Positions 21,361 through 23,316 of a stretch of 64,000 nucleotides of DNA are shown here, piece after piece. The notes under the pieces are model-generated. The model saw nothing but the letters and a program-made list of their open reading frames with translations. It did not search any database and was not told the DNA's origin. The stretch lies in the sequence record PV469800.1. One strand, written 5' to 3'. Within the stretch, counting starts at the first letter, position 1. Each line of letters opens with the position of its first letter. Origin of the DNA: Escherichia phage HMD-P10. A program made the position numbers and the translations under genes.

Positions 21361-21564
21361 GACCTCAAAGTTATATTAAATTTTGTATTACATTGAGTAT
21401 AAAAATAAGCTATAACACCTGACTTGTCAACAGATTTTATAGCTTATTTGGCAGATTTTTTATAAGGCTACTGCCATCCTTCCATACCAAGCCAAACCTT
21501 ACAAGACCCAACCACACATCACTGTACTCAACAGAACTCTACCCTACCTCATTAAAAGACCCTC

Positions 21565-21620
21565 TTAAAGACCTTTTAAAAAGGTAAGTCTCATTTTCAT
21601 GTAGCTGAGACTAACTACCC
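21565..21620. repeat. 56-bp element with conserved hairpin (copy 1)
   Basis: Identical to 23100..23155; contains AGTCTCA-(12 nt loop)-TGAGACT hairpin and near-palindrome ACCTTTTAAAAAGGT. Confidence 0.8.
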
Positions 21621-21718
21621 GCACCGAACCTCACCTGACCTGACCGCACCCGACCTCACCGTGCCATACCATACCATACTTCACTTAAAAACCCTTTTCA
21701 AAGACCCTTAAGTGATGT

Positions 21719-21744
21719 AATCGAATTTTAATGTAGCTCCGATT
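21719..21744. other. variant copy of conserved hairpin with covarying stem
   Basis: AATCGAA-TTTTAATGTAGC-TCCGATT; same loop as 21585..21610 but different stem; fully paired with one G-U wobble only when read on the minus strand. Confidence 0.6.
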
Positions 21745-21842
21745 AACTACCCATACTTTACCTAACCCGACCGCACCTAACCCGACCTGACCCTACCAGA
21801 CCCCACCTAGCTAAACCTTATTAAAAAACCCTGTTTAAAGAC

Positions 21843-21876
21843 CTTTTAAAAAGGAGCCTCCGAAGAGGCTACCTAG
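21843..21876 (-). terminator. rho-independent terminator (minus strand)
   Basis: Minus-strand AGCCTCTTCGGAGGCT hairpin followed by CCTTTTTAAAAGG. Confidence 0.55.
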
Positions 21877-21881
21877 TCAAC

Positions 21882-22322
21882 TTAGAATGGTTTTCTACGT
21901 TGCTTGTTAATATTAGCTTTCATAGCAGCTAAGTGGTTTTGCTGTTCAATCAGCCGTGAACGTTCTTGATGACTAAGTGCCATAGTGTTCACATTCTCAA
22001 TCGCTTGAGTGGCTTGCTTTAAAGCGCGACCAATCTTACCAGACATTTTGCGTTTTGCAATAGTTGCTTGATGTTTAGGCTCAACCACACGATAACCAAC
22101 ACCCATCGAAGCAACCAGATAAATCTTCTCTTCTTTAAGAAGCTTCTCAATAAACTTCTCAAGTCGGTTTAGACGTGTAAGCGCATAAGCTTTCATTTCA
22201 TCTTCGTACTTAACAATGTCACCTTGATAAGTTGGCTTCACAATACCTAAGAAGGTATCCATCTCAGAGTGTGATACAGTGTCACCGTAACTAAACTTTG
22301 CTGCTAATGCTTTTGTATTCAT
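21882..22322 (-). CDS. hypothetical protein
   Basis: 146 aa ORF; bracketed by repeat-rich intergenic regions. Confidence 0.4.
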   Translation of the reverse strand: MNTKALAAKFSYGDTVSHSEMDTFLGIVKPTYQGDIVKYEDEMKAYALTRLNRLEKFIEKLLKEEKIYLVASMGVGYRVVEPKHQATIAKRKMSGKIGRALKQATQAIENVNTMALSHQERSRLIEQQNHLAAMKANINKQRRKPF

Positions 22323-22324
22323 AA

Positions 22325-22927
22325 TTAAACGTTACCTTCTGAAATAACTTCTACAGAAAAACGACCAAAGCGTGGACGCCAATCACCTACACCACAAAGG
22401 TTGCCAGCATTCTCCAGAACCATCAAGAGTTCCTCTTTGGTGATTTGCTCTTCATCGAACATCAAACCGAACTCTACAGACCAGTCACGGAAGATTGGAC
22501 GGTAGCTCATAACTCGTGCTGTACCAATCTTAACAGACTTAGCATAGATAAAGTCTGGATTCTTAGCAAGTTCTTGTGGGTTTGCTGGACAGTTCTTGAT
22601 AGTCATTGGGAAGACTACATCTGTCAGCATAATGGCTCGGTCAATTACCTTACCAAGTTTGTTGAGTTTCGCACCAGACTTGATGCAAGCCTCAATCATC
22701 TCACCGTTCATAACAAAACCTAGTTGCTCATCGTAGTAACAAGAGGTTACCAGTTGACTTTCTGCTAATAGCGCATAGTCTTCATCAGTCTTTTTACGTT
22801 TACTGGACAGAGACTTGTGATATTTTGTCAGAGGGTTTAATGGGTCTGACAGCGTATCAGCGTGGCTCAGGAAAGGACGAGTACCAGTGATTTTGATATT
22901 TAACAGTTTCATAGCATTTAGCTCCAC
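22325..22927 (-). CDS. hypothetical protein
   Basis: 200 aa ORF; start may be at a downstream Met (MKLLNIK). Confidence 0.4.
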
Positions 22928-23099
22928 ACTTTAGTTGATTGTTAAGTTGTTTGTAAAGAACCCTCAACAGAAGACTCTTTAGAAACTTGGTAGATTTTTA
23001 ACGTGGCTACTACCATCCACCCATACCAAACCTAACCACACCATACAAAACCCAACCTCATCACACCTCGCAATACCATACCTTATTAAAACACCCTGT

Positions 23100-23155
23100 T
23101 TAAAGACCTTTTAAAAAGGTAAGTCTCATTTTCATGTAGCTGAGACTAACTACCC
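23100..23155. repeat. 56-bp element with conserved hairpin (copy 2)
   Basis: Identical to 21565..21620. Confidence 0.8.
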
Positions 23156-23316
23156 ATACCTAACCTTACATCACCTTACCAAGCCAAACCTCACAATACC
23201 GAACCATACCTAGCATCACTTAAAAACCCTCTTAGAAGACTCTTAAGTGATGCTGGTGAGTACCCGTTGGTTTATGCTGCTCAGTATACTCACCAAATTT
23301 TCTATGTCAACAACTT

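Follow-up and report, generated by a model that had tools for sequence, protein, structure and literature searches.

The closest described systems are the VIPR (Viral Interference Programmable Repeat) loci, a newly reported mode of RNA-guided DNA recognition that is proposed to be older than CRISPR. Their mechanism is published as 2026 bioRxiv preprints that are not yet peer reviewed. The Vipr protein is a minimal RAMP homologue of ~20 kDa that polymerises on a small guide RNA, the vrRNA. A vrRNA consists of 9-16 YNNGG repeats, in which GGY is conserved and NN is hypervariable, followed by an invariable, structured 3' tail of ~40 nt whose conserved structure includes a pseudoknot (bioRxiv 10.64898/2026.04.26.720920, 10.64898/2026.04.26.720927). 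In SUSP1, preprint cryo-EM places one Vipr protomer on each GGY in a helical filament. The NN dinucleotides stay exposed and read double-stranded DNA by pairing, with a skip at every third target base, and the R-loop triplex that forms blocks transcription. The SUSP1 RNAs are ~100 nt long in small-RNA sequencing and co-purify with Vipr, and repression is seen in GFP/lambda assays. Natural VIPR targets mostly belong to competing mobile elements, and the base skipped is the one at the codon wobble position (bioRxiv 10.64898/2026.04.26.720920, 10.64898/2026.04.26.720927).

The window analysed here is a stretch of 64,000 nucleotides from Escherichia phage HMD-P10 (PV469800.1), a Felix O1-like phage. 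Two GT-rich gaps in this window, 21361-21881 and 22928-23316, flank the genes vipr and vap1. Neither gap contains an ORF of at least 40 aa on either strand, with the exception of the end portion of a 41-aa plus-strand ORF (21254-21379) at the gap edge. Scans of the window with Rfam (gathering thresholds) and ARAGORN return no match. The interval 21449-23310 on the minus strand is almost certainly a complete type II VIPR locus of the SUSP1 clade. The gaps hold five vrRNAs, in arrays on both sides of the gene of their partner protein, and the system is thus one already known. Two vrRNAs (B1 and B2) are upstream of vipr and vap1 and three (A1, A2 and A3) are downstream. Each is 92-103 nt long, in agreement with the ~100-nt RNAs of SUSP1, and is made up of 12-14 pentamers (Y-NN-GG) followed by a tail of ~32 nt. 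DNA ligase and other replication genes adjoin the locus. The Felix O1 genome paper names other repeats and does not mention these. The mapped features, in the direction of the minus strand, are as follows.

23283-23310, minus strand: sigma-70-type promoter, TTGACA-16-TATACT (11/12), immediately behind the stop codon of DNA ligase and at the 5' end of the locus
23212-23254, minus strand: leader hairpin 1, 20-bp G·U-rich stem AGCAUCACUUAAGAGUCUUC/UAA/GAGGGUUUUUAAGUGAUGCU
23122-23213, minus strand: vrRNA-B1, 12 YNNGG units (23154-23213) and tail hairpin/pseudoknot (23122-23153); NN code TA AT TC AT GA TT TT AA GA AA TA AT
23080-23120, minus strand: leader hairpin 2, type I, ACCUUUUUAAAAGGUCUUUAAACAGGGUGUUUUAAUAAGGU
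22988-23085, minus strand: vrRNA-B2, 13 units (23021-23085) and tail (22988-23020) with stem TGGTAG/CTACCA and pseudoknot GTGG/CCAC; inner code AT AT GA GT GA TG TT AT GT TA TT
22949-22986, minus strand: leader hairpin 3, between vrRNA-B2 and the vipr ribosome-binding site
22325-22912, minus strand: vipr, a RAMP-family protein of 195 aa, identical at 192/195 positions to PDB 36pp_D 'SUSP1 Vipr protein' (E 8.5e-129)
21882-22322, minus strand: vap1 (vipr-accessory protein), 146 aa, with 99.3% identity to the ORF that directly follows vipr in SUSP1
21848-21870, minus strand: intrinsic terminator after vap1, AGCCTCTTCGGAGGCT followed by CCTTTTT
21816-21854, minus strand: leader hairpin 4, type I
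21719-21820, minus strand: vrRNA-A1, 14 units (21751-21820) and tail (21719-21750) with stem AATCGGA/TTCGATT, one pair being G·U; inner code TT TA GG CT AG CA CG TA GC CG TA AA
21678-21718, minus strand: leader hairpin 5, type II, stem CAUCACUUAA.../...UUAAGUGAAG
21587-21683, minus strand: vrRNA-A2, 13 units (21619-21683) and tail (21587-21618) identical to that of vrRNA-B1; inner code AT AT AT AC GA CG GC CA CA GA TC
21546-21585, minus strand: leader hairpin 6, type I
21449-21551, minus strand: vrRNA-A3, 14 units (21482-21551) and tail (21449-21481) with stem TGGCAG/CTGCCA and pseudoknot AAGG/CCTT; inner code AG AG TC TG AC GA GT TG CT AA TT TT

The Vipr protein of this locus is 98.5% identical to SUSP1 Vipr and keeps the functionally tested residues R39, K82, G87 and K88. 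The vap1 gene starts 2 nt after vipr and belongs to PHROG 5926, without a Pfam match; its presumed accessory role is carried over from the preprint on SUSP1. The sigma-70-type promoter probably drives vrRNA-B1, vrRNA-B2, vipr and vap1. The other three vrRNAs are located behind the canonical vap1 terminator, and no sigma-70 promoter is recognisable for them. The U-tract of this terminator doubles as part of the 5' arm of leader hairpin 4. By analogy with the near-identical SUSP1 system, all five vrRNAs would be expressed, processed and bound by Vipr.

The repeat tracts stand out from the rest of the window. In-phase ACC triplets with a 5-nt period, counted in 55-nt windows, score 6 or more in four segments only, all of which are within the two gaps. 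The maximum score in the whole 64 kb is 10/11, and plus-strand GGT in the same count never exceeds 4. The skewed composition reported in the first-pass annotation is therefore far from chance, and the rest of the 64 kb is free of the period-5 GGT signal. The 13-bp unit ACCTAACCCGACC is present twice, as had been described, at 21760-21772 and 21775-21787. Across 71 distinct tracts, Y is T in 88% and C in 11% of units, N1 and N2 each have an entropy of 1.9 bits, and the two G positions are conserved at 82% and 96%. At each interior unit position of these tracts, 12-16 of the 16 possible dinucleotides are observed. These statistics agree with the published YNNGG definition, so the units are vrRNA repeats by that definition. 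The first and last units of each vrRNA are constant and appear to be unused for pairing.

The tail accounts for the hairpin on which the earlier annotation had centred. A 56-bp element at 21565-21620 is identical to 23100-23155, and the identity ends precisely at these borders. On the minus strand, both copies contain the hairpin AGTCTCA / GCTACATGAAAA / TGAGACT. The third copy (21719-21744, minus strand) folds as AATCGGA / GCTACATTAAAA / TTCGATT, in which two pairs are fully compensated and one is G·U. Two further homologous hairpins with other stems are present at 21449-21481 and 22988-23020. The tail hairpins have AU-rich stems of 6-7 bp and loops of 12-16 nt, and the loop pairs with the 4 nt immediately 5' of the stem to form a pseudoknot. 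Among 87 tails there are five stem classes and three pseudoknot classes (GTAG/CTAC, GTGG/CCAC and AAGG/CCTT), with compensating changes in every class. Their 10 distinct stem/pseudoknot combinations comprise 97 Watson-Crick, 2 G·U and 5 mismatch cells. Stem and pseudoknot pairing are thus preserved in the 87 tails and the G·U pairs fit the minus strand only, which upholds the reading of the covarying hairpin as a functional minus-strand RNA. The hairpin is the conserved vrRNA 3' tail, as described for the SUSP1 clade.

A G·U-rich leader hairpin of 16-20 bp precedes every repeat tract, and one more is found before vipr. Because of their G·U pairs, the leader hairpins are about twice as stable in RNA of the minus strand as in RNA of the opposite strand; for example, leader hairpin 1 has a folding energy of -23.2 kcal/mol on the minus strand and -13.8 on the opposite strand. 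For leader hairpin 3, 19 of the copies in the scanned loci share a single sequence variant. The tops of the leader hairpins form a conserved box, GTCTT-N5-6-RGGGT. This box was considered as a promoter and rejected, as it has no acceptable -35/-10 geometry, is confined to this locus and is part of a G·U-paired hairpin. Minimum free energy folding of whole arrays gives z-scores of only -2.6 to -2.9, and the informative structural signal is in the individual hairpins, not in the global fold of the array. The leader hairpins may mark precursor processing sites or filament boundaries. The text of the two VIPR preprints mentions neither these hairpins nor the constant units at the two ends of the tract.

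Under the 1-nt-skip rule, an E. coli satellite island contains matches to four of the five guides, at 22/22, 21/22, 21/24 and 21/24 inner-unit bases, in a sample of 12 E. coli satellite variants. Permuted guides reach maxima of 17-19, none of 300 permutations equals the observed score, and other skip lengths match at most 17 bases. The targeted satellite is an E. coli chromosomal island of ~9-12 kb, and its family is present in ~10% of complete E. coli genomes. The perfect match is that of vrRNA-B2, whose 22/22 target ATCATTGATGTAGAATGATTAATAGTTTAATT occurs in two satellites (L150 and L154), 20-50 nt downstream of a promoter-like site and upstream of the leftward genes of the satellite. The other three matching guides target large serine-recombinase genes, in satellite lineages at three different integration sites. 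The vrRNA-A2 target (21/22) is in the recombinase gene of the wrbA-site satellites, in frame and with the skipped base at codon position 3. The best vrRNA-A1 target (21/24) is in the recombinase gene of the tonB-site satellites, and the vrRNA-A3 target (21/24) is antisense in that of the yecD-site satellites. Both of these matches are imperfect, at 88% among the 12 satellites sampled.

No significant target is found for vrRNA-B1 in the 12 satellites or in an exact-pattern IMG/VR scan. The same type of scan for A2 also returns no match; guide and target disagree at one base in this case, and the satellites are part of bacterial chromosomes. Within the 64-kb window, no self-target reaches the published cut-off of 0.80 of NN bases; the best self-match covers 0.71-0.77, which is background level. 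Since the guides match the satellite under the published rule, the phage most likely uses the arrays to silence the satellite that parasitises it, as judged from the sequence. By analogy with SUSP1, Vipr protomers would assemble on the GGY of the five vrRNAs into a filament, and the NN dinucleotides would read satellite DNA with a 1-nt skip and silence its transcription.

A blind IMG/VR scan with (GGTNN)x7, done before the literature match, returns 120 loci, 32 of which have a Vipr homologue beside the runs. A 37%-identical Vipr homologue encoded in L026 has pure GGTNN runs on its flanks. Applied to another locus (L016), the tail-based caller recovers the published SUSP1 layout of one upstream and three downstream vrRNAs. 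A solo vrRNA is present in Salmonella phage Si3, the one vipr-less relative examined, and solo vrRNAs are also present in satellites; they possibly occur in further vipr-less relatives. The solo guides of Si3 and of satellite L147 match none of the 12 sampled E. coli satellites above background, and their targets may be in Salmonella or in other satellites. The unit number differs from relative to relative. Si3 lacks the cassette, as other relatives with ~40% query coverage probably do. This variation shows that recombination between repeats occurs, as a consequence of the repeats and not as their function.

The leader hairpins and the solo vrRNA of a vipr-less relative are possibly undescribed details of VIPR systems, and the text of the two preprints does not discuss solo vrRNAs as shared or pirated guides. 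We suggest only tentatively, and consider it rather unlikely, that the leader hairpins are a biogenesis element (through RNase III-type double-strand cleavage or as length-setting filament stops) and that solo vrRNAs are functional trans guides or decoys on the Vipr of a co-infecting phage. If true for the solo vrRNAs, this would amount to guide piracy in a three-way conflict between phages and satellite, in which foreign Vipr is used or titrated.

Three other readings were weighed against the VIPR assignment. The tail hairpins could be attenuators, terminators or processing signals for the flanking genes, with the GT-rich runs as mere spacer. The upstream array is in the vipr 5' leader, downstream of a strong promoter, there is a genuine terminator at 21848-21870, and the two identical tail hairpins (B1 and A2) are followed by CCUUUUU. 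The U-run behind two hairpins had been noted in the first-pass annotation and is indeed present in the sequence, but it forms the 5' arm of the leader hairpin that follows and is lacking in three of the five tails. The terminator scan returns the vap1 terminator only, at 21870-21855, so the attenuator role suggested earlier finds no tail hairpin that qualifies. The array at 21361-21881 is downstream of the genes and not in a leader, and the runs follow a strict pentamer code, with NN bases that fit external targets. This reading is very improbable.

The G-quadruplex proposal of the same annotation fares slightly worse still. The GG doublets every 5 nt are formally compatible with two-tetrad quadruplexes with 3-nt loops, which could be structural or regulatory in DNA or RNA. 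However, a pyrimidine follows GG in 99% of units, a constraint that a quadruplex would not impose, and the first G is replaced in 18% of units and is degenerate in 6/14 units of vrRNA-A3, a guide that still matches its target. The pyrimidine constraint and the replaceable first G fit protein recognition of GGY and not G-tetrads, and in the cryo-EM preprint the GGY bases are sequestered individually by Vipr protomers. Equally remote is a role of the runs as DNA, be it an R-loop-prone origin, a cluster of primase sites, a protein-binding array or recombination cassettes that shuffle the two genes. The strand asymmetry is extreme, the position beside the replication genes and the variable, recombining units would suit it, and the GGTC/GGGTC motifs presumably resemble T7 primase sites. 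Against it are the RNA-strand preference of the leader hairpins and of the tail G·U cells, the external matches of the NN bases, and the ~100-nt RNAs sequenced at the equivalent SUSP1 positions, which co-purify with Vipr. Seven earlier hypotheses (a TRAP-like ring-protein site, a type III toxin-antitoxin array, a PeSL-like mobile regulatory cassette, an R-loop origin, T7-type primase clusters, a Shine-Dalgarno-like standby array and Rho avoidance) were set aside once the partner protein had been recognised and external targets had been found for the NN code.

The VIPR reading retains the unusual gaps, the repeats and the covarying hairpin of the first-pass annotation and replaces their interpretation. 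Absent from that annotation was the central point, that the GT-rich runs are information-carrying guide segments with the partner gene between the gaps. It had also missed the strict YNNGG register, the hairpins of the B2 and A3 tails, the pseudoknot partners and the long hairpins between units. A VIPR locus was recognised from raw sequence, and composition together with covariation suffices to flag such systems. The locus map provides five natural guides with coordinates and four predicted satellite targets, and the one perfect, promoter-proximal target is open to direct test. The leader hairpins and solo vrRNAs raise the subjects of guide biogenesis and of guide sharing or theft between elements.

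Among other known systems, ToxIN (type III toxin-antitoxin) shares with VIPR a promoter, tandem structured RNA units of variable number and a gene for an RNA-binding protein. Unlike vrRNAs, the ToxI repeats are 36 nt long, are cut by the endoribonuclease toxin ToxN and have no guide function. Pfam and PDB sequence searches show no ToxN-like similarity of Vipr. In Bacillus, the TRAP oligomer recognises the single-stranded trp leader RNA by a conserved triplet that recurs every 5 nt, with ~11 repeats per RNA, as in VIPR. TRAP is a closed ring, an 11-mer of unrelated fold that recognises (G/U)AG, and its 2-3-nt spacers carry no information. TRAP acts by attenuation in cis, whereas VIPR acts by guided DNA binding in trans.

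In Class 1 CRISPR-Cas systems, a RAMP-fold protein (Cas7) likewise polymerises along the guide RNA (crRNA), a thumb displaces bases at regular intervals, the variable guide carries a conserved structured handle as a cap, and mobile elements are targeted. A CRISPR array was rejected for this locus: there are no 28-37-nt repeat-spacer units, no cas genes among the neighbours (Pfam and PHROGs, nine neighbouring proteins scanned) and no Rfam match, and the repeat finder returns composite units of ~135 nt and pentamers. VIPR differs from Class 1 CRISPR-Cas in having no CRISPR array, no cas1/cas2 adaptation genes and no repeat-spacer structure. Its register is 5 nt, with only two of five bases read and one target base in three skipped. 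It is phage-borne and aimed at a satellite, and this type silences without cleavage.

The closest system is SUSP1 VIPR (PDB 36pp). The two loci share the gene order, YNNGG vrRNAs with a hairpin-pseudoknot tail, arrays on both sides, E. coli satellite targets under the 1-nt-skip rule and the lack of self-targeting. They differ in array content, with two upstream and three downstream vrRNAs here and one and three in SUSP1. The guide NN sequences also differ, and the top whole-locus identity to any fetched relative is ~92%.

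The phage belongs to the Felix O1-like myoviruses. A search with the surrounding 2.9 kb gives 258 matching phage records (80-99% identity), most of them from phages of Escherichia, Salmonella and Shigella in Felixounavirus and related genera. The minus strand carries all genes from about 17.9 to 28.7 kb. This block of about 11 kb (17874-28672) includes the ligase gene and a 909-aa ORF and lies between plus-strand blocks; the GC skew changes sign at both of its edges (about 18 kb and 28-29 kb). The gaps at 21361..21881 and 22928..23316 enclose a minus-strand cassette of a 200-codon ORF (22325-22927) and a 146-codon ORF (21882-22322), with DNA ligase on the upstream side and a 128-codon gene on the downstream side. 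Some 0.6 kb past the downstream end of the locus, a gene in the same direction encodes a 109-aa helix-turn-helix (Cro/C1-type) regulator (20468-20797, minus strand).

The 200-aa protein matches one solved structure, the SUSP1 Vipr protein (PDB 36pp, E 1e-128). The 195-aa product from an internal ATG (22912) is identical to SUSP1 Vipr at 192 of 195 residues, and R39, K82, G87 and K88 are unchanged. The second ORF shares 99.3% identity with the gene that follows vipr in SUSP1 and is therefore vap1. The gene for Vipr, a minimal RAMP protein, is accompanied by an accessory gene, vap (bioRxiv 10.64898/2026.04.26.720920 and 10.64898/2026.04.26.720927; hereafter the VIPR preprints). A vrRNA consists of 9-16 YNNGG repeats and a conserved 3' tail, which in the SUSP1 clade has a pseudoknot; each GGY is held by one Vipr protomer, and the NN dinucleotides pair with double-stranded DNA, every third base being skipped (VIPR preprints). 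Binding by Vipr-vrRNA leads to an R-loop triplex and repressed transcription, and SUSP1-clade guides are aimed mostly at a satellite in E. coli genomes (VIPR preprints). The locus belongs to the VIPR system, in the clade of the published type system, and is hence already known. The finding is real and, by analogy with that system, functional.

Both gaps are tandem arrays of three-part composite units of about 135 nt, with two vrRNAs upstream of the genes (B1, B2) and three downstream (A1, A2, A3). The parts of the unit and the signals around the arrays are as follows.

Unit part (a), minus strand: long hairpin with the box GUCUU-N5-6-RGGGU (leader hairpin)
Unit part (b), minus strand: 12-14 pentamers in the register Y-NN-GG
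Unit part (c), minus strand: 6-7-bp hairpin with a 12-16-nt loop, consensus GCYACRUKAAAA (tail hairpin)
23310-23283, minus strand: strong sigma-70-type promoter (predicted) that opens the locus
21870-21855, minus strand: canonical terminator after the second gene, vap1
21430-21402, minus strand: promoter (predicted) serving the next gene

The downstream array lies behind the terminator and has no recognisable promoter. Among relatives, the number of units is 0-3 upstream and 1-3 downstream. A tail-based caller applied to phage SUSP1 returns one upstream and three downstream vrRNAs, in agreement with the published layout.

The skewed composition of the gaps reported in the first-pass annotation holds up: in-phase ACC with period 5 (at least 6 of 11) occurs in only four segments of the 64 kb, all within the gaps, and the 13-bp unit ACCTAACCCGACC is indeed present twice. 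The 71 distinct tracts from 33 loci have T (88%) or C (11%) at Y; the two Gs are conserved at 82% and 96%, and N1 and N2 each have an entropy of 1.9 bits. The last pentamer is near-constant, with AT in 61 of 71 tracts. The first G is degenerate (AG, TG, GA) in 6 of the 14 units of guide A3 (21482-21551, minus strand) and 3 of the 13 units of guide B2 (23021-23085, minus strand).

The minus-strand RNA structure proposed from the hairpins is correct, and the hairpin is the vrRNA tail. The 56-bp copies (21565..21620 and 23100..23155) are identical precisely up to their borders, and the third hairpin (21719..21744) has, as described, a different stem that remains paired with one G·U. The loop is complementary to the 4 nt directly 5' of the hairpin (GUAG/CUAC, GUGG/CCAC, AAGG/CCUU), which indicates a pseudoknot. 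The 87 tails represent 10 distinct stem/pseudoknot combinations, over which the cells comprise 97 Watson-Crick pairs, 2 G·U pairs and 5 mismatches. An attenuator role for the tail hairpins, suggested from the U-runs that follow two of them, is rejected, as is a terminator role. G-quadruplex formation by the runs, which the G-tract spacing would allow, is not supported by the conservation pattern across the tracts or by the published structures (VIPR preprints). Roles of the runs at the DNA level conflict with the target code and with G·U pairing that fits one strand only.

The box GTCTT-N5-6-RGGGT has six minus-strand copies within the locus; outside it, the 64 kb contain one sequence-level match (44094, plus strand). 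Repeat tracts directly follow five of the six copies, and the vipr ribosome-binding site follows the other. The box and its flanks are predicted to fold into a 16-20-bp hairpin with many G·U pairs, whose stability on the vrRNA strand is about double that on the opposite strand (-23.2 versus -13.8 and -13.6 versus -8.9 kcal/mol). Two flank types (CCUUUUUAAAA.../CAUCACUUAA...) both retain pairing. Mature vrRNAs are about 100 nt and units about 135 nt, so the leader hairpins are probably removed; we infer a processing site or a filament boundary.

A BLAST search of the locus against complete E. coli genomes finds vrRNA-like sequences in unannotated DNA of 132 genomes. One match lies in an island of about 11 kb that encodes a large serine recombinase together with baseplate and tape-measure proteins and carries a solo vrRNA. 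Islands related to this satellite are present in 565 of 5,426 complete E. coli genomes. The fetched satellite family encodes a serine recombinase, a baseplate protein, a tape measure protein, an HNH endonuclease or Dam methylase and a small recombinase, and occupies at least three integration sites (wrbA-ymdF, tonB-yciI and yecD/DUF72). The five NN codes, without the constant first and last units, were scanned against 12 fetched satellite variants, with these matches.

Guide B2: 22/22 NN bases, intergenic, two satellites
Guide A2: 21/22 NN bases, recombinase gene, wrbA-site satellites
Guide A1: 21/24 NN bases, recombinase gene, tonB-site satellites
Guide A3: 21/24 NN bases, recombinase gene (antisense), yecD-site satellites

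For each of these guides, none of 300 unit permutations reaches the observed score (permutation maxima 17-19), and skip lengths of 0, 2 or 3 give at most 17 matches. The best match of guide B1 in the 12 variants is at background level (16/20), and no site in the 64-kb window reaches the published 80% cut-off for a self-target. Guides A1, A2 and A3 are directed at the integrases of three site classes, one class per guide. The A2 target is in frame, with the skipped base at codon position 3. The B2 target is 20-50 nt downstream of a promoter-like site (TTGACA-17-GATGAT) and upstream of the satellite's leftward genes, a position suited to a transcriptional roadblock. A3 and B2 match despite their degenerate first Gs, so strict GG is dispensable at some units, at least as far as complementarity to the target is concerned. 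The two terminal units of all four matched guides probably do not pair with the target; the first is the base of the leader hairpin, and the last (UAUGG) directly adjoins the tail, which begins with the bases that form the pseudoknot.

The present analysis itself shows the components with their architecture and covariation, together with the target complementarity of four guides. Carried over from the near-identical SUSP1 system (VIPR preprints), vrRNAs of about 100 nt would be expressed, a Vipr filament would assemble on GGY, gapped pairing and triplex formation would silence the target, and vap1 would enhance silencing. The spread of three guides over three integrase lineages, and the placement of a fourth past a promoter-like site, suggest that the phage silences a satellite that exploits it.

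For many related phage records, coverage of the query reaches only about 40%, pointing to absence of the cassette. The one examined, Salmonella phage Si3 (NC_041922.1; 760-1040 of locus L159, minus strand), has no vipr; a single vrRNA (about 10 units, A3-type tail) persists between the ligase and 128-aa genes, together with one leader hairpin and the promoter next to ligase. The arrangement resembles the product of a repeat-mediated deletion, with the vrRNA as an orphan guide. The satellite of E. coli S40 (NZ_CP010235.1; 14930-15125 of locus L147) has its own solo vrRNA of 11-12 units with a GTGG/CCAC tail, a predicted TTGACA-17-TAAGAT promoter and a canonical terminator. The island has no annotated vipr gene, and this vrRNA would need Vipr supplied by an infecting phage.

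A blind IMG/VR pattern scan for (GGTNN)x7 returns at least 120 loci, and among the matches listed 32 of 120 encode a homologue of the same protein adjoining the runs, which links GGTNN runs and the Vipr family across very distant phages. In one contig (L026), retrieved with the 200-aa protein as query, the homologue is only 37% identical, and all intergenic regions around the gene are pure (GGTNN)n runs. Other VIPR-like array styles occur in the scan (L029, 6099-6508; L033-L036, one 189-kb IMG/VR contig; L061; L039-L042), one with six tandem guides separated by a constant AAGGCTAATGGG. A jumbo-phage contig has at least eight separate runs, and some runs end in (GGTAA)n and then a U-run. Simple pentanucleotide microsatellites, (GGTCG)n or (GGTCA)n, make up some of the matches and are perhaps unrelated.

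Neither VIPR preprint mentions leader hairpins, RNase, maturation or orphan guides in its text, and details of the leader hairpins, downstream-array transcription, unit-number variation and cassette loss were not found there. What is new relative to the published system is incremental: the guide and target map of this phage, the leader hairpins, the constant terminal units and the solo vrRNAs. The SUSP1 clade was defined from 13 loci (VIPR preprint). By tblastn, 117 deposited phage genomes (Felixounavirus, Suspvirus, Mooglevirus) encode Vipr with at least 90% identity, which provides many more natural guides for target mining.
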